A stretch of DNA of 41,622 nucleotides from an uncultured archaeon. Its GTDB lineage: Archaea > Asgardarchaeota > Lokiarchaeia > Sigyniarchaeales > SOKP01. Both the position numbers and the translations under genes were made by a program. Positions 2,868 to 20,039 of this stretch are shown piece after piece. Below the pieces are notes generated by a model, which worked only from the letters and a program-made list of their open reading frames with translations, did not search any database and had not been told where the DNA came from. Each line of letters opens with the position of its first letter. Positions within the stretch are counted from its first letter, which is position 1. The DNA lies in the NCBI GenBank assembly GCA_964598265.1, contig CAZRBD010000002.1, positions 22,661 through 64,282 of the forward strand. Reading direction: 5' to 3'.

Positions 2868-3764
2868 TTAAAATTTAATTTTTTGTTTTATATATTCCCA
2901 GAATTTATTTTTTAATTCACTTAATTCTTTATTTTTTAATTTCAAAAAATATAAAGACCTTTTAGCGACTTCTGGAAATTCTTTTATCTCTAAACATTTT
3001 ACAAGGTGGGGGATCTTATTTGTCATAATTTCACTCATAATGCCAATATAATTAGAATCACTTACAGTAGAGATAATTGAATCATTGTCATTTATGATTA
3101 ATTTAATATTTAAATCTTTATACTTAGGGAATTGGTTTTTAAAGGTTTCTCGCATTCCTGAACCTTTTTCTCTCCATACAAAGGGATATTTAGTGAGGAC
3201 ATCGAAACTTACAGAATTGTTCCCATCTTGAAGTAATTCATGAGTAGGAGAACAAATGAACTTTATTTTTTCCTCTCCAATTTTAATGAAGTCAAAACCA
3301 TCTCTATTATATTTCATGAAACTACCAATTCCTGCAAAATCTGCAGATCCCTTTTTAATATTTTCTATAGATTTCTGAGAATTATTAATCAGAATTTTAA
3401 AGTTTACGCTAGGATTTTTGTTTCTGAATTCTGCTATATATTTAGGTAAAACATGAGAACCAGGGATAGTAGAGGCCGATATAATAATATCTTCAATTTT
3501 TTGTTGAAAAAATTCAGAAATTTCACGTTTACAGTTATCATATATATTGATAATACTCTCTGCATGTTTCAGAAAAATTTCACCTGCTTTCGTCAACTCA
3601 AACTTTTTAGTTGATCTGTTAATTAGTTTACCACCAAATTCTTTTTCTAACTGTGAAATTTGATGGGATAGAGTACTTTGAGAAATTGGGAGTTCTTGTG
3701 CTAATTTTGAAAAACTTTTAAATTGTGTTAATTTGATAAAGTTTCTTAAGTACTCAATTTGCAT
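2868..3764 (-). CDS. LysR-family transcriptional regulator (CysL-like / selenium-metabolism-associated type)
   Basis: HTH SFSKLAQELPISQSTLSHQISQLEKEFGGKLINR; ASTIPG and REKGSG motifs; divergent from dsrE-tusA. Confidence 0.92.
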   Translation of the reverse strand: MQIEYLRNFIKLTQFKSFSKLAQELPISQSTLSHQISQLEKEFGGKLINRSTKKFELTKAGEIFLKHAESIINIYDNCKREISEFFQQKIEDIIISASTIPGSHVLPKYIAEFRNKNPSVNFKILINNSQKSIENIKKGSADFAGIGSFMKYNRDGFDFIKIGEEKIKFICSPTHELLQDGNNSVSFDVLTKYPFVWREKGSGMRETFKNQFPKYKDLNIKLIINDNDSIISTVSDSNYIGIMSEIMTNKIPHLVKCLEIKEFPEVAKRSLYFLKLKNKELSELKNKFWEYIKQKIKF

Positions 3765-6290: not shown

Positions 6291-7481
6291 TTAACGCTTT
6301 AAATTCGCTGATACCCAATCAAAATAGCCTTTATCGTCCAATTCTTTTGGTACTGCCTCAAAGAATTGTTTTGTAATGTCTTTCAGGTGTTTTGCGGCAA
6401 TCGGGTGAAACATCATCGCCAAATCCAACCCAACCAAAGTCAACGAAAGAGCATTTAAAACTTCCCAAATTGGTCCCCGATATTGACGTAGCCCCCATTG
6501 GGGAGCTATTTTTTCACTCATCCAGGCTTCCCTCGCACCCCAAGCGTTCGTAGTTCCACCACTAATCGGGTAAGCTAAATCAGTCTCCCCTAGTAGTCCA
6601 GCAACTCGCATTCGTTGATAAATACTGAAGCTATACTCCATCCCGTATCCTAAAATCGCAGCTACATAAGAATTTTATGTAATTTAAGCTGTTGCGCAGG
6701 TTGGATCCATCACGATCCTGTTAGGGGGGAGTCCCAGTTCAAGTGCGTCTTTATTCATTTTAATTTGATTGTTCATATCTAAGCTAGTCCATAGCAAACA
6801 ATTGTGGTCATATTTCACAGCAAGAGGGATAACTTCTTCCCACGTAGCTTTATCAGCAGCAGATAACATTAAGACTTCACTTTCAGTGGCCGCGGCAGTA
6901 ACTTCAAATAGCTCAACATCCTTTTTCTTATTCCCGGAACATCCAATTATGATAGGAACATCGACGGCTTGTAGAATATCTTCTAAAAATTTTAGAGATT
7001 GCGAAACTGGCGCGTCTCCCATTGCTGGATCTATTTCGAGTGAATGAAAAGTAATACACTCTGCTCCGAATTTATTAACAGCCCGTTTTGCCCATTCAGC
7101 AGGATCACCTAAAACTTCGCTATACTGTTGTTTAATTGGTTTTGGAAGCATCATTTTAGCACCCATGTCGAATACATCATAGGTTATGAGAGGAGGATTA
7201 GGATTCCTCTTATCAAGTCCTAAAAAGTTATAAAAGGGAGGTACAACTTCTCCACCAATTACAGTTTTTTTACCATTTGAGCGAATGAATTCTACAGTTT
7301 GAATTTTCCCAGGAAAATCAATATCGAGGGAAAATTTAGCAGGTGTCCATACAGCTTTCCCTGGAACTCCAGGTAATACTGCTTGAGCGGCAGCCTGTAC
7401 GATGCTTGGCAACATTTGAAATTCAAGATATTCCGCAAATAAATCTACATCAGTAAATTCTACTTCTTCAGTATCCCTCAT
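6291..7481 (-). CDS. cdhD: CO dehydrogenase/acetyl-CoA synthase delta subunit (corrinoid Fe-S protein small subunit); exons 7481..6691 and 6654..6291, 384 aa after splicing; start may extend to 7520
   Basis: IGGEVVPPFY, DPAEWAK, VDVPIIIGCSGN and DMNNQIKMN in exon 1; LGYGMEYSFS, NAWGAREAW, RGPIWE and MMFHP in exon 2. Both ORF pieces are in the same frame, and removing 36 nt gives IVMDPTCATLGYGMEYS. Confidence 0.93.
6655..6690 (-). other. 36-nt bulge-helix-bulge (BHB) mRNA intron in cdhD
   Basis: Intron AGCUUAAAUUACAUAAAAUUCUUAUGUAGCUGCGAU. Central helix CGCA/UGCG, bulges AC^A and AU^U, intron helices GCU/AGC and UACAUAA/UUAUGUA. Contains two in-frame UAA stops; canonical cuts restore the frame. 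Confidence 0.85.
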
Positions 7482-7722: not shown

Positions 7723-10700
7723 TCATTTAGGAAGACTGAAGTAAAAAATACTTCCCTTATTTTTCCCCTCTGATTCCATCCAAATTTTCCCTCCATGAGA
7801 TTCCACGATTTTTTTAGAGATATATAAACCTAACCCACTACCATCAATTCCTAAATCAAGACCTTGACCATAACGTTCAATTTTTCCAAATTGTTGAAAG
7901 ATTCTATCTTTCTCTTCTTTTGTGAAACCAATTCCATTATCTTTTATTGAAACAACAATAGAATCATCTAAAGTTTCTGTTTTTATCTCAATACGTCCCT
8001 TTGGTGGAGTATATTTTATTGCATTTGAGAGTAAATTAGTTATAACATCATGGATTTCTTCTTTTTCAACATTTGCATACAACGGGGTATGTATATCTAG
8101 TTTAATTGATTGATTCCTTTTTTCTGCCAAAGATTCTAATTTATGCACGCAAAATTTAATGAGAAATGATAAATCTTCTCGTTCAAATTTTGGTTTAAGT
8201 TCTGTTGATTCTAATCTTGATGTATGTATAAGATCGTTAATAATATTCTGCAATCGTTCACAACCTTGATTAATTTCCCCTAATTTTGATATTATGTCTG
8301 GGTTTAATTCTTCTCTATATAATGTTAAGATAAGATCAGAGAATCCTTTAATTGAAATGAGGGGTGTTTTTAATTCATGAGAAGCCCTTCTAAGAAATTC
8401 AGATTTCATCATGCCTAATTCTCTTAGCTTTTCTTGTGTTTTCTTAAGTTCGGTGATGTCATGTGAAATCCCAAACAGACCTTTTATATTTCCATCTTTA
8501 TCAAACCAAGGTATCTTTGTGGTTAGAACCCATGTTCCTGCAGAGCTTTCTTCCTTATTAATTAATGCTATCCCTGTTTTGATAACTTGAAGATCTTCAC
8601 TATGCGTTATTTTTGCAATCTCTTCTGGAAAAAGTTCTATGTCACTTTTTCCGATAATCTCTTCCATACTTCTCCCGAAGAATTCACAAAAACGCTTGCT
8701 TATATGCTGGAATCTAGCTTTCTTATCCTTAAAGTAAATGAAGTCAGGATGGTTCTCTAAAAGCGTCCGGATGAGATCTCGTTCATGATACAATGTCTCT
8801 TCTGATTGCTTACTCTTAATTGAATTAACGAAAATATTTGCTAAAACGTGAAGTAAATTAACTATATCCTTTGGCCACTCTCTCTCAATGTTTACTTCCC
8901 CATAAAATCCAAGGGTCCCGAATAATTTGTTTTTAAATAGCATGGGAACAAATATTAACGACCGAAAACCATATTCTTTAATCCACTCTCTTTCCCCACT
9001 GGCTTCAGAGGGTATATCATCAAACTGGTTAATAATTACATCTTTTTTCTCTTTAAGTAGTTTTAAATAATATCCAAATTCTTCAGAAGGAATATTTTGG
9101 AGTAAGGCAATCTGAGAATCTTTAGGATCTACACACCATTCGTTAGTATTGGTTACCCTAGTTAAATCTTCAGAATAAATAAATAGTGAACAACGGACGG
9201 CGTTAACAAATTGACCGATCTTATTTAATGCAAGATTAATCAAATCGTTTAAGTTCTCATCAAGTACATTAATAAAATCTAAAGATATAAGAGATATTAA
9301 CCTCTCAAACTCATACCGGGATTTTAATTCTTCTTCTGCTCCCTTGCGCCCAGTTATGTCCTGAACTGTTCCGACTAATTTAATAACTTGTCCACTTTTA
9401 TTCTTAATAGTACGCATTAATGCTGCTAACTGAACAACCATTCCACTAGGTAAATTTGCCTGGAAGTCATAGTCGAATTCTTCCCCAAATTCGAGTGCAC
9501 GGCGTGAATATTCTTTTAATCTTTCACTGGTATCGGGAGTATAGTAAGTTGCTTCTTCTTCTGAGGAAGGAGGCCCCAAAGAAGGATCTCGATCATATAA
9601 TTCGAATACTTGATCGGACCACGTTATCTGTTGGCTGGTAATATCAAACTCCCAATAACCGATTTTTCCTAAAGCTTGAGCTTCTTTTAATCGTCGTTCA
9701 CTATCCTTTAGAGCTTCTTCCGATTTTTTGGCCTCAGTGCAATCTCTAAAACTCCACACTCGTCCTTTAATTTCTGCATCTATAACTAATAGACTAGAGA
9801 ATCGTTCAAAAATTCTTCCATCTTTAAAATAGAGAGCATCAAAATCTTCGCTTGTAGATCTGTAGAGTTGTTTTACTTTTGAAAGAAAAGCTTCTGGGTC
9901 TTTTAGTTGACTTAGTACATAATCCAATAATTTTTGATCATCCCCTTTATCGATTAAATCTTGTGGAATACGCCACATGTCCGCAAATTTGGAATTAGTA
10001 TGAGAAATTTGGCCTTTTTCATCAACAACAAGAATACCGTCAGCAGTAGATTCAAGACTTGCTCTCAAAACTTCTTCAGATTCCTTTAATTTTTGTTCTG
10101 ACATTATTTTTTCGGTAATATCTCTTGTAATACATAAAATTCCCTCATTTACTGGGTAAACACTGACTTCATAATATCCTTTACGTCCATCTGGATGGAT
10201 AAAATCACCCACAATACGTTTTGTCTTTCTTTTATTCATAACATCATTATAAATTTTAAAGAATTGAGTTTTTTCGAAACCCGGAAATAAAACGGTTAAT
10301 TTGTTTCCAATCATTTGATCTACAGACATTTGAACCATTTCAGTTGCGGTTTTATTAATCATTACATAATCCCAATTTTTATCTAAAACGAACACTCCAT
10401 CAGTAATGGATTCAAGTAACATTTTATATTGATCAGAAAGTCTATGATATATTTCCTCTGACTCTTTTAATTTTTGTTCTGCCTTAAGTCGCTCGGTCAG
10501 TTCAACAAAAGTCCCTTCAGAAGAAACGATTTCTCCATTAGAATTCTTAATTAATTTGAAATTCAGTTCCAAAAAGATCTCCTTTCCATCCACTTTTTTA
10601 ACTGGAGCTATATATTTCTTAACGATGCCATTTTTGAAAAGAATCTCTCTAAATTTATTTCTCTCCTCAAAATTTAGCCAATAATCTAAAATCTTAGTGT

Positions 10701-10866
10701 CAATTAAATTTTCTTCCCGATTATAACTAAAAATCTTGTTAAAAGTAAGATTGTGGTTTAATATAGTGCCATCGTTACTAACTTTTACAAATCCAATATC
10801 TAAATCATTAAGTGTGGCTAGTAAATTTTCTTCGGGATTATAATTATCTTTATTTATCGATGCCAA
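7723..10866 (-). CDS. Cytoplasmic multi-PAS/GAF sensor histidine kinase
   Basis: Several PAS repeats ending in RDIT/QDIT/HDIT, a GAF segment, H-box SHELKTPL, N-box NLLSNAIKY, DNGIG and GSGLGL. Confidence 0.95.
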   Translation of the reverse strand: MASINKDNYNPEENLLATLNDLDIGFVKVSNDGTILNHNLTFNKIFSYNREENLIDTKILDYWLNFEERNKFREILFKNGIVKKYIAPVKKVDGKEIFLELNFKLIKNSNGEIVSSEGTFVELTERLKAEQKLKESEEIYHRLSDQYKMLLESITDGVFVLDKNWDYVMINKTATEMVQMSVDQMIGNKLTVLFPGFEKTQFFKIYNDVMNKRKTKRIVGDFIHPDGRKGYYEVSVYPVNEGILCITRDITEKIMSEQKLKESEEVLRASLESTADGILVVDEKGQISHTNSKFADMWRIPQDLIDKGDDQKLLDYVLSQLKDPEAFLSKVKQLYRSTSEDFDALYFKDGRIFERFSSLLVIDAEIKGRVWSFRDCTEAKKSEEALKDSERRLKEAQALGKIGYWEFDITSQQITWSDQVFELYDRDPSLGPPSSEEEATYYTPDTSERLKEYSRRALEFGEEFDYDFQANLPSGMVVQLAALMRTIKNKSGQVIKLVGTVQDITGRKGAEEELKSRYEFERLISLISLDFINVLDENLNDLINLALNKIGQFVNAVRCSLFIYSEDLTRVTNTNEWCVDPKDSQIALLQNIPSEEFGYYLKLLKEKKDVIINQFDDIPSEASGEREWIKEYGFRSLIFVPMLFKNKLFGTLGFYGEVNIEREWPKDIVNLLHVLANIFVNSIKSKQSEETLYHERDLIRTLLENHPDFIYFKDKKARFQHISKRFCEFFGRSMEEIIGKSDIELFPEEIAKITHSEDLQVIKTGIALINKEESSAGTWVLTTKIPWFDKDGNIKGLFGISHDITELKKTQEKLRELGMMKSEFLRRASHELKTPLISIKGFSDLILTLYREELNPDIISKLGEINQGCERLQNIINDLIHTSRLESTELKPKFEREDLSFLIKFCVHKLESLAEKRNQSIKLDIHTPLYANVEKEEIHDVITNLLSNAIKYTPPKGRIEIKTETLDDSIVVSIKDNGIGFTKEEKDRIFQQFGKIERYGQGLDLGIDGSGLGLYISKKIVESHGGKIWMESEGKNKGSIFYFSLPK

Positions 10867-18155: not shown

Positions 18156-20039
18156 TTGAATAGTAGGGAACAGAATTTAAATCTATCAGCAGAAGTATTT
18201 AAAGATATTTTCAATCTTGTTCCGAACCCAATTTATATTTGGAAGAAGGTTGGAGAAGATTTGATTTTGGTAGATTATAACAGGGCAGCAGAAAATTTAT
18301 CACATTTTAAGATTAAAGATTTTCTCGGAGTAATCGCAAAGGAGATATACCAGAATAAACCCGAAATTATATCAGATTTATATCAATGCGCAAATTCTAA
18401 ATTGAATTTTTCAAAGGAGATTAATTACACGTTTTTTACAAATGAAGAGGATAAAAAACTCTATGTTACCTACAATTATATTCCATCTGATTTGATATTA
18501 GTTCTCGCTGAAGACATTACAAAACAAAAGAAAACAGAAGACTATTTGAAGAAATCTGAAAATGAAAAAACTTTTATCTTAAATGGAATTTCGGAATTAA
18601 TAGTTTTTCAAGATACCGAGAATAACATACTTTGGGCTAACAAGGCTGCTGGTGATTCAGTTGAAATACCTCAAGATGAATTAATTGGTCTTAAATGTTA
18701 TGAAGTGTGGCATAATCGCGAGATACCGTGTGAAATCTGTCCTGTTAATAGAGCTGTAAAATCAGGGAAACCAGAAATTGATGATGTTATTTCACCAGAT
18801 GGGAAGGAATGGATTATAAAGGGTTTCCCTATACTAGAAGAAAACAACACTTTAATTGGCATCACCGAAGTAGCTCAAGATATTTCAAGTCAAAAAAAAG
18901 CAGAACGGAATTTAAAAGAATCCGAGAAAAGATATCGTTTACTATTTGAAAATATGGCTGCTGCTTTTGCTTATCATAAGATTATTGTAGATGAAAATAA
19001 CAAACCAATAGATTATCAATTTTGGGAAGTTAATCCAGCTTTTGAAGAATTTACTGGTTTAAAAATCAGTGATATAATTGGAAAAAAAGTGACAGAAGTA
19101 TTACCTGGAATAGAAAATGATCCTGCTGATTGGATAGGAAAATATGGGAAGGTTGCTCTTACTAGGATCCCGATAACTTTTGAAAATTATGCAGAACCTC
19201 TCGATCAATGGTTTAGTGTCGCGGCATATTCTCCAAAAGAGAATTATTTTGCAGTTACTTTTACTAATATTACTGAACGCAAAAAAGCAGAATTAGCATT
19301 AAGAAAATCAAGAGAAAATTATCGTGATGCTTATAATCGCAGTAATTTATATAAGGATGTCTTTACACATGATATTAATAATATACTCCAGAATGTGTTA
19401 TCATCATTAGAGCTTTCTAAAGCCTTTTCTTATGAAACTACTAAAATAAAGGAGTATGAAGAAGTTACAAAAATCATTGAAAAACAAATTGTTAGAGGGA
19501 AAAAACTAGTGAAAAACATACAAACTCTTTCCCAAATTGAAAGTTATAAAGAAGAACTTTCTTCAATCGAGGTTTTAAATATCTTAGAAAAAGCAGTTGA
19601 AATCTTAAAACAAAGTCATCTCGATAAAATTATTAATATTACAATTACAGCATCTCAAGATGAATATCATATTAGAGCAAACAAATTATTAAGAAGAATT
19701 TTTGATAATATTCTTGATAATGCTGTATATCATAATCGAAATCAGTTGGTAGAAATTGTAATCAACGTCTCAAGAGTAAGCAAAAATGAAACTGATTTAA
19801 TTAAAATTGAGATTATTGACAATGGGTTAGGAATACCTGATCCTATGAAAGAAACCATTTTCCTTAGAGAAATTAAAGTAGATGATATACCCTCTGGTAT
19901 CGGTCTAGGTCTATTACTTGTAAAAAGAATACTAGAGAGCTATAATGGAGAGATAAGAGTTGAAGATCGAATCATTGGAGATCATAGTAAAGGAAGTAAA
20001 TTTATTATTTTAATGCAAGAGAAACCAAACAATTTATGA
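18156..20039 (+). CDS. PAS sensor histidine kinase (HDINN H-box class)
   Basis: Three PAS domains, one carrying CYEVWH...PCEICP; FTHDINNILQ; NILDNAVYH; DNGLG; GIGLGL. Confidence 0.93.
   Translation: MNSREQNLNLSAEVFKDIFNLVPNPIYIWKKVGEDLILVDYNRAAENLSHFKIKDFLGVIAKEIYQNKPEIISDLYQCANSKLNFSKEINYTFFTNEEDKKLYVTYNYIPSDLILVLAEDITKQKKTEDYLKKSENEKTFILNGISELIVFQDTENNILWANKAAGDSVEIPQDELIGLKCYEVWHNREIPCEICPVNRAVKSGKPEIDDVISPDGKEWIIKGFPILEENNTLIGITEVAQDISSQKKAERNLKESEKRYRLLFENMAAAFAYHKIIVDENNKPIDYQFWEVNPAFEEFTGLKISDIIGKKVTEVLPGIENDPADWIGKYGKVALTRIPITFENYAEPLDQWFSVAAYSPKENYFAVTFTNITERKKAELALRKSRENYRDAYNRSNLYKDVFTHDINNILQNVLSSLELSKAFSYETTKIKEYEEVTKIIEKQIVRGKKLVKNIQTLSQIESYKEELSSIEVLNILEKAVEILKQSHLDKIINITITASQDEYHIRANKLLRRIFDNILDNAVYHNRNQLVEIVINVSRVSKNETDLIKIEIIDNGLGIPDPMKETIFLREIKVDDIPSGIGLGLLLVKRILESYNGEIRVEDRIIGDHSKGSKFIILMQEKPNNL

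Follow-up and report, generated by a model that had tools for sequence, protein, structure and literature searches.

How an archaeon makes the delta subunit of its CO dehydrogenase/acetyl-CoA synthase complex from a gene interrupted by stop codons is the question raised by cdhD in a 41,622-nucleotide (nt) stretch of DNA, referred to here as the window, from an Asgard metagenome bin (G000; 4.23 Mb in 318 contigs, with cdhD on contig C2). In window numbering, which is used throughout, cdhD lies on the minus strand at 7481 to 6291 and is open in one frame except for 36 nt at 6690 to 6655, which hold two TAA codons. A profile search of the whole genome finds this copy of cdhD only. [quoted passage not shown] The gene is divided as follows.

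6691 to 7481, minus strand: cdhD exon 1, with its ATG at 7481 and ending with the AC of a split Thr codon; matches TIGR00381 positions 70-277 with 201.7 bits.
6655 to 6690, minus strand: putative BHB intron, class 1, 36 nt; predicted 5′ splice site between 6691 and 6690 and 3′ splice site between 6655 and 6654.
6291 to 6654, minus strand: cdhD exon 2, beginning with the third base of the split codon and ending with the stop at 6293-6291; matches TIGR00381 positions 280-378 with 127.7 bits.

Both the Pfam CdhD family and the NCBIfam cdhD family match on each side of the insert. Exon 1 runs one residue beyond TIGR00381 position 277 and exon 2 starts at position 280; therefore, one residue falls between the exons, and profile position 279, between the two pieces, is the codon AC/T. 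Each exon alone scores below the TIGR00381 cut-off of 252.9 bits, and the gene read through the insert reaches 333 bits over positions 4-375 of 389. Excision by the BHB rule, which places a cut behind the second nucleotide of both bulges, yields DPTCATLGYG, the motif that stands at this site in all intron-less orthologues displayed; 63 of the 76 unique cdhD genes collected have no insert of any kind. With the outer windows fixed and each tried cut scored against an orthologue, the BHB cut is one of the two among 33 that best restore the orthologue, and a four-base-pair (bp) central helix forms at two of the 33 cuts only. Between G000 and a relative with the same intron, G019, 153 of 361 codons differ synonymously only and 44 differ with a change of amino acid, and the proportions are the same against intron-less cdhD genes; as judged from these codon differences, the cdhD exons are under purifying selection. 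A first-pass annotation of this DNA had quoted the minus-strand sequence without error, and its 36-nt in-frame insert with two stops, its excised product and its otherwise intact exons are all borne out, as is its assignment to an Asgard-like host, given that the relatives are Promethearchaeota or Promethearchaeia.

The elements of the BHB motif, in order along the transcript, are listed below, with reference to the minimum free energy (MFE) fold and the alignment of relatives.

6703 to 6718, minus strand: upstream exon hairpin GGAUC(6 nt)GAUCC, about 10 nt upstream of the BHB.
6697 to 6700, minus strand: 5′ strand of the exon-exon helix, CCUG; 100% of cells paired, with two pairs changing to wobble.
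6693 to 6696, minus strand: 5′ strand of the central helix, CGCA, in exon 1; pairs with 6657-6660 in the MFE fold.
6690 to 6692, minus strand: 5′ bulge ACA, 3 nt; predicted cut after its second base.
6661 to 6689, minus strand: intron-side helix, consisting of GC/GC, an asymmetric 6-nt bulge and the 7-bp stem UACAUAA/UUAUGUA with a 5-nt loop, AAUUC.
6657 to 6660, minus strand: 3′ strand of the central helix, UGCG, in the intron; seen in the MFE fold and in the alignment.
6654 to 6656, minus strand: 3′ bulge AUU, which is AGA, AAA or AUA in relatives; predicted cut after its second base.
6649 to 6653, minus strand: 3′ strand of the exon-exon helix, UUAGG; pairs with CCUG through a G.U pair and a 1-nt bulge.

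An unconstrained MFE fold of 81 nt retains CGCA/UGCG, the ACA bulge, GCU/AGC and a 6-bp hairpin. The central helix, the ACA bulge and GCU/AGC of the earlier drawing therefore stand in this fold, but its 3-bp and 7-bp stems share A 6663, and only 2 + 7 or 3 + 6 bp can form on the intron side, not 3 + 7.

Conservation of the motif was evaluated in the relatives. The end pattern of the insert, scanned over a family sample of 135 genomes alongside control patterns, occurs in eight genomes, once in each and always in cdhD; the controls give no match. These eight species-level genomes belong to two genera, with four 36-nt introns in genus g1 and one 36-nt and three 32-nt introns in its sister genus g22. 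Pairing was measured as the fraction of pair cells that are paired, in comparison with controls in which the partner strand is slid, and by a covariation score set against shuffles. For the eight class-1 sequences, 99.4% of 164 cells are paired as opposed to 25.6-40.9% in the slid controls: the intron-side helix (2 bp plus the 7-bp stem) is 97.7-100% paired, the exon-side helix (4 bp with one bulge) 100%, and the central-helix pairs (24-27/60-63 of the alignment) are invariant and paired in all eight. The 36-nt and 32-nt forms each have seven Watson-Crick pairs in stems that differ (TACATAA/TTATGTA and AATTTAA/TTAAATT) when aligned from the loop outward. Because the insert occupies the same site in eight genomes, pairs at 99.4% and is removed by a BHB cut that is also an orthologue-restoring cut, the class-1 motif is beyond chance. 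In addition, the GGAUC/GAUCC exon hairpin is present in all eight class-1 genes by way of synonymous codons and cannot form in the intron-less sequences displayed; this hairpin could be co-converted sequence or a helper structure. RNAalifold run on class 1 recovers both the exon-exon helix and this upstream hairpin.

Class 1 is one of three separate insert sites found when 43 cdhD gene copies of the genus were aligned. Within the genus sample of 54 genomes, cdhD is matched in 45, with internal stops in seven of the matches and two matches split. The sites and their carriers are as follows.

Class 1, at 6655 to 6690, minus strand, 36 nt: G000, G019, G016 and G005.
Class 2, nine bases upstream of class 1, inside the DPT codons, 33 nt: G067 and G041.
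Class 2, same site, 32 nt: G043.
Class 3, about 200 nt upstream of class 1, at W-E-E-V/I-P, 30 nt: G016, G005 and G059.
Class 3, same site, 29 nt: G004.

Both G016 and G005 carry two cdhD introns. Worked by hand, class 2 has the central helix CCCA/UGGG with bulges ACA and AAA, and class 3 has the central helix GAAG/CUUY with bulges UAA/UAU and AAA/AGA. The BHB rule applied by hand to these two classes excises the exact insert length every time. The 32- and 29-nt inserts break the frame and therefore cannot be read through, and the rule restores the frame in each. The four class-3 sequences are 91.5% paired with five pairs changed on both sides, and none of 500 shuffles reaches their covariation score. 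One of the doubly changed pairs lies in the central helix itself, where a change of exon GAA to GAT is matched by a change in the intron.

Several observations on relatives stand beside this survey. A phylum-wide search matched cdhD in 229 of 400 genomes, with intron status read for the family; among the matches listed, one Thor/Heimdall-side genome (G180) has one TAA in cdhD, not at the class-1 site. Contigs of two relatives, G275 and G261, end at or beside the class-1 site, and the exon spelling at the break in G275 is of the intron type; such ends may reflect mixtures of intron-plus and intron-minus strains that break assembly. One contig with a Loki-type cdhD (L089) is filed in an actinobacterial (Nanopelagicaceae) bin, which is probably mislabelled or contaminated.

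The insert is also visualized in sequencing runs independent of the bin. Logan contigs of two other studies span it with no gaps, one of 554 nt at depth 176.6 (X5) and one of 4085 nt (X7), and a possible source run carries it with no differences. A contig from a third study, X6, skips 42 bases and has six others instead; this allele lacks precisely the intron and spells its Leu and Gly codons differently. A second X6 contig has a loose end at window position 6684 with divergent intron letters whose predicted pairing, GCAUAAG/CUUAUGC, is a stem with full compensation; from its letters, this contig is probably a further class-1 variant.

Enzymes expected to process such an intron are encoded in G000. 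Two EndA paralogues of 198 and 200 amino acids match PF01974 with 103.7 and 71.3 bits, respectively, and their closest solved relatives are tRNA-splicing endonucleases, the first paralogue being nearest to 3p1z_B and 3ajv_B (E ~1e-35) and the second to 1a79_A (1e-21). The two paralogues are probably the alpha and beta subunits of an (alpha-beta)2 enzyme. Asgard archaea have an (alpha-beta)2 EndA with a loop linked to broad specificity, and relaxed motifs such as that of cdhD are reportedly accepted by (alpha-beta)2 enzymes (PMC5829648). RtcB is encoded as well (566 bits). Because cdhD is single-copy, making CdhD should need splicing, and the earlier expectation that CdhD synthesis requires EndA plus a ligase agrees with this predicted set of two EndA proteins and RtcB. 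The tRNA genes of G000 fit the same picture: aragorn finds 28, of which 17 have introns, five with implausible lengths. The low count suggests that more, heavily interrupted, tRNA genes were missed, and Asgard tRNA genes are described as intron-rich in the available text of a preprint (bioRxiv 10.64898/2026.10.13.758758).

The cdhD intron is not alone in this genome. As a reference for a genome-wide comparison, the single contig of a relative, G022 (2,265,924 nt), supplied 2,685 open frames of at least 90 amino acids, which were compared with G000 by tblastn; an insert was counted at 12 nt or more with a stop or frame shift. There are 26 such inserts in G000. A strict, strong BHB is found in six of the 26, as opposed to one of 149 open in-frame inserts and three of 156 displaced controls. 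With the outer windows fixed, sixteen of the 26 are evaluable, and in nine of these, cdhD included, the best-restoring cut also has a 4-bp central helix. With a tenth case, C29, at least nine protein genes of G000 besides cdhD have inserts that fit the BHB rule, in keeping with the earlier proposal that other split genes be scanned for the motif. The host genes, named from Pfam, are as follows.

C6: response regulator, 30 nt; textbook hBHBh′ motif.
C36: nucleoside-phosphorylase-like, 30 nt.
C217: unknown protein, 30 nt.
C76: unknown protein, 30 nt.
C242: Mg-chelatase/VWA, 30 nt.
C163: LOR/zinc-ribbon, 30 nt.
C215:445-1198: ribosomal protein L11, 28 nt; frame broken.
C59:2595-3272: RNA polymerase A′, 85 nt; frame broken.
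C29: phosphofructokinase, 30 nt; the tenth case, with three of four central pairs and a 10-bp hairpin.

All seven 30-nt stop-bearing inserts (C6, C36, C217, C76, C242, C163 and C29) have the usual 30-nt build of one base, a 23-nt hairpin, four bases and two bases. The two frames of RNA polymerase A′ belong to one gene (hidden Markov model pieces at C59:2677-2895 and 2972-3694), whose insert folds as a BHB with long exon helices and three internal hairpins. Unconstrained folds give the BHB outright in C6 (z -3.17) and C59 (z -4.10), where none of 200 shuffles folds as well; three other insert regions fold no better than shuffles. No sequence family common to the different intron sites is seen.

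Ribosomal protein L11 is interrupted repeatedly. An alignment of 22 genes from the genus shows three intron sites within about 130 nt.

L11 site A: 36-37 nt, in nine genomes.
L11 site B: 31-36 nt, in six genomes.
L11 site C: 28 nt, in 13 genomes, G000 included.

All three introns are present in G045 and G005. At site C, 95.5% of 132 cells are paired as opposed to 28-54% in the slid controls. In the opposite direction of comparison, one strong BHB occurs among ten stop- or frameshift-bearing inserts of G022. A G022 gene whose G000 counterpart (on C7) is continuous holds a 30-nt stop-bearing BHB-like insert at C1:1382059-1382088; therefore, intron sets differ between species. Further stop-bearing G000 inserts of 24-33 nt are observed at C5:36052-36081, C47:6878-6907, C5:37802-37834, C143:1609-1632 and C137:247-279, and for the one on C5 that interrupts a GHMP kinase, both a central helix and a hairpin are plausible. 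It is likely that the genus carries genome-wide, approximately 30-nt, endonuclease-spliced mini-introns, essential genes included, that are polymorphic between species and are spread or erased by recombination with short exon tracts.

The history of the cdhD introns was examined with a tree of the 76 unique genes, from which the intron columns were removed. Intron-bearing genes are scattered, each with close intron-less sisters; the pairs G016 with G014 and the G245 copy with L109 both have a Shimodaira-Hasegawa-like approximate likelihood ratio (SH-aLRT) of 100. Identity to the intron-less sister of the G245 copy is 95-98% distally and 73-77% within -60 to +30 nt of the site. When this copy is compared with G000, from another genus, identity rises from 75% in the distal exons to 93% within 30 nt of the site, and the introns agree at 89%. 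Similarly, the G000 and G019 introns are 97% identical and their distal exons 73-77%. Because such close sisters cannot have drifted by approximately 20 changes in 90 nt, we infer from these sequences short recombination tracts by which the class-1 intron, or its absence, would pass between lineages. Constraint on the exon halves of the motif may explain part of the mosaic identity, and chimeric bins are a possible but unlikely source of the mosaic flanks. The mosaic of class 2 is similar but weaker, and the identity profiles of class 3 contain no defensible recombination mosaic. In its distribution, the class-1 intron resembles an element that spreads or is neutral.

The immediate surroundings of the locus add the following. 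cdhC is intact elsewhere in G000, on contig C28, and no other cdh genes flank cdhD. Directly upstream of cdhD is a 1047-amino acid open reading frame (ORF) at window 7723-10866, minus strand, that by its translation resembles a multi-PAS sensor histidine kinase. At the left edge of the window, an apparent insert of 13 nt consists of a run of N and was discarded. An Rfam search of window 6300-7100 returns no match at E up to 1, and a loose pattern scan of metagenomes has no cdhD among the 80 loci listed. An ab initio scan of G000 for BHB excisions that join two open frames of at least 60 codons was dropped: it gives 19,508 matches and the shifted-cut controls 18,610-19,886, with no signal because adjacent operon genes swamp it.

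Several results weigh against reading these inserts as BHB introns. The 81-nt cdhD fold has an ordinary energy (z -0.34, with 64 of 200 shuffles folding as well), and therefore one sequence taken by itself is no proof. The 5′ bulge is clean; the 3′ bulge measures 3 nt provided that G6697.U6653 closes it, and 4 nt if not, and the exon-side helix is weak. The weak exon pairing of the first-pass annotation is thus present, but it needs a 1-nt bulge or a 4-nt 3′ bulge, for which reason the motif is near-canonical, not strict. In class 1, one pair is changed on both sides, which is not significant by the shuffle control (189 of 500), and the BHB core is mostly invariant and uninformative either way; the comparison of relatives that was proposed earlier accordingly finds the insert at the same site with its pairing kept and its exons alive, but not a significant class-1 covariation. 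RNAalifold prefers a competing fold, CAGCU/AGCUG, over the central helix CGCA/UGCG. Genome-wide, ten of the 26 inserts give no open product and six of the 16 evaluated do not fit, two of these being antisense duplicates of loci already counted. Finally, no RNA run is among the listed run holders of the stretch, and all genomes compared are metagenome bins.

The last point bears on the explanation that the insert, or its mosaic flanks, came from chimeric assembly of mixed strains, as does the ending of relatives' contigs (G275 and G261) at or near the site. Contigs from two other studies and the possible source run reproduce the insert, however, and the eight bins that agree have counterparts from several isolate series, which leaves an artefact as the least probable of the alternatives. 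A more probable one, though itself very improbable, is that the insert is kept and exon 2 is translated separately, so that two polypeptides assemble: an ATG at 6641 (MEYSF...), four codons past the 3′ splice site, opens a 116-amino acid ORF at 6291 to 6641. Under this explanation, the LGYG of DPTCATLGYG would be absent from both pieces, the conserved BHB geometry, the exact fit of 36- and 32-nt forms and the two other cdhD sites would go unexplained, and L11, broken three times within about 130 nt, would need four separately started pieces, which is implausible.

The gene could instead be a pseudogene, killed by a small insertion or duplication that resembles a BHB by chance. The recurrence of CTGCG near both insert ends, the unremarkable fold energy and the nine genus genomes with no cdhD match are compatible with such a scar, but a dead gene does not account for an insert common to eight species-level genomes of two genera, for 153 synonymous-only as opposed to 44 amino acid-changing codons, for a single-copy cdhD beside an intact cdhC, for similar inserts in RNA polymerase A′ and L11, or for the enrichment of strong BHBs in stop- or frameshift-bearing inserts (6 of 26, versus 3 of 156 in controls). 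We regard it as marginally less probable than a split gene. Programmed translational bypassing, in which the ribosome would hop over the 36 nt, is known from T4 gene 60 and the mitochondrial "byp" elements, and the inserts resemble those systems in being short, in having a hairpin and in placing stops soon after the take-off point. Here, however, no triplet ahead of the resuming TTA (GAT/ATT precede it) offers a landing match for ACA, the codon decoded last, the C163 insert is likewise mismatched (GAC versus AAA), and an invariant 4-bp helix with two 3-nt bulges is not needed for a hop; bypassing thus ranks below the pseudogene and just above an assembly artefact.

For the preferred BHB intron, we infer the following course of RNA cleavage and ligation. 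The pre-mRNA would fold so that CGCA, the final four bases of exon 1 ahead of the bulge, pairs with UGCG close to the intron's 3′ end. With the intron hairpin on one side and the weak exon-exon helix on the other, two 3-nt bulges would be offered to EndA, probably an (alpha-beta)2 enzyme, which would cut after the second base of each. RtcB would then join the exons, restoring the codon AC/T and DPTCATLGYG, and the 36-nt intron would be released, probably as a circle. A ribosome on unspliced mRNA would meet the first TAA and terminate two codons into the insert. The intron would be one of a population of approximately 30-nt BHB mini-introns in the protein genes of the genus, not fixed but present in a minority of lineages, and presumably moved or erased by homologous recombination with about 30-60 nt of flanking exon.

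The nearest known system is the intron of the archaeal cbf5 gene, reportedly described in earlier papers by Watanabe (2002) and Yoshinari (2006). According to the available text of PMC2738675, splicing of BHB introns in archaeal protein genes is confirmed for cbf5 only, in Crenarchaeota, and putative introns in other archaeal protein genes are predicted but unconfirmed. The accessible portions of a 2018 paper (PMC5829648) and of a 2025 paper likewise cite cbf5 studies only for archaeal pre-mRNA splicing. The open full-text literature yielded no publication that describes BHB introns in cdh genes or in protein genes of Asgard archaea, which agrees with the statement in the first-pass annotation that none was known in Asgard archaea or in a Wood-Ljungdahl gene; subscription journals may differ. 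Similar to cbf5 of Desulfurococcales and Sulfolobales, as PMC2738675 describes it, cdhD has a short intron in a protein gene whose motif is BHB-like and often relaxed, cuts that are predicted to separate bulge residues two and three (the position stated there for cbf5 introns), a host with a hetero-oligomeric EndA and a patchy phylogenetic presence that implies gain and loss. The main differences from cbf5 are that the cdhD case lies in an Asgard archaeon and a Wood-Ljungdahl gene, that there are three independent sites rather than one, and that splicing of cbf5 is confirmed by cDNA, whereas the cdhD intron is known here from DNA alone. In addition, at least nine further genes are interrupted in the same genome here, and L11 has three sites.

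Archaeal tRNA and rRNA introns, among them those of the intron-rich Asgard tRNA genes (bioRxiv 10.64898/2026.10.13.758758), share the BHB motif, presumably the same enzymes, and the same intron-rich lineages, and such introns are likewise gained repeatedly at motif-capable sites; the available text of that preprint treats tRNA genes only. Unlike in tRNA genes, the exon halves of the cdhD motif are built from codons, with biased synonymous choices beside the intron, and since the hosts here are mRNAs, splicing would gate translation. Fujishima and colleagues reportedly described, in about 2010, tRNA intron transposition in Thermoproteales, which is similar in that BHB introns appear at new sites and spread among genes; the evidence here, in contrast to that case, is for allele-to-allele transfer with flanking exon and not for transposition.

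The first-pass annotation had also suggested a regulatory switch analogous to HAC1/XBP1. In that system, an mRNA is cut at stem-loop sites by a non-spliceosomal endonuclease, the stress-activated RNase IRE1, followed by RtcB-type ligation, as a conserved regulatory frame switch. The cdhD intron resembles it in the predicted endonuclease cut of an mRNA outside the spliceosome and in RtcB-type ligation. It differs in that no regulator is evident (no IRE1-like search was made), in being one of many introns, and in having metabolic and housekeeping hosts. The intron is absent from most relatives (127 of the 135 family genomes) and similar introns lie in unrelated and housekeeping genes; the proposed switch is unsupported.

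The mechanism confirmed for cbf5 seems to be at work at three sites of a core carbon-fixation gene and in at least nine other genes of one Asgard genome. Standard annotation would label such genes as pseudogenes or as split, understating the metabolism of a bin (Wood-Ljungdahl pathway, glycolysis and translation), and estimates of completeness or contamination that use intact markers such as L11 may be biased in these lineages. The introns would also provide a natural system for intron spread without a homing enzyme. If the interpretation is true, the closest archaeal relatives of eukaryotes already have interrupted protein genes and obligatory mRNA splicing by the tRNA machinery, not by a spliceosome. 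It would then be testable whether, in the lineage that founded the eukaryotes, interrupted protein genes and obligatory mRNA splicing predate the spliceosome.

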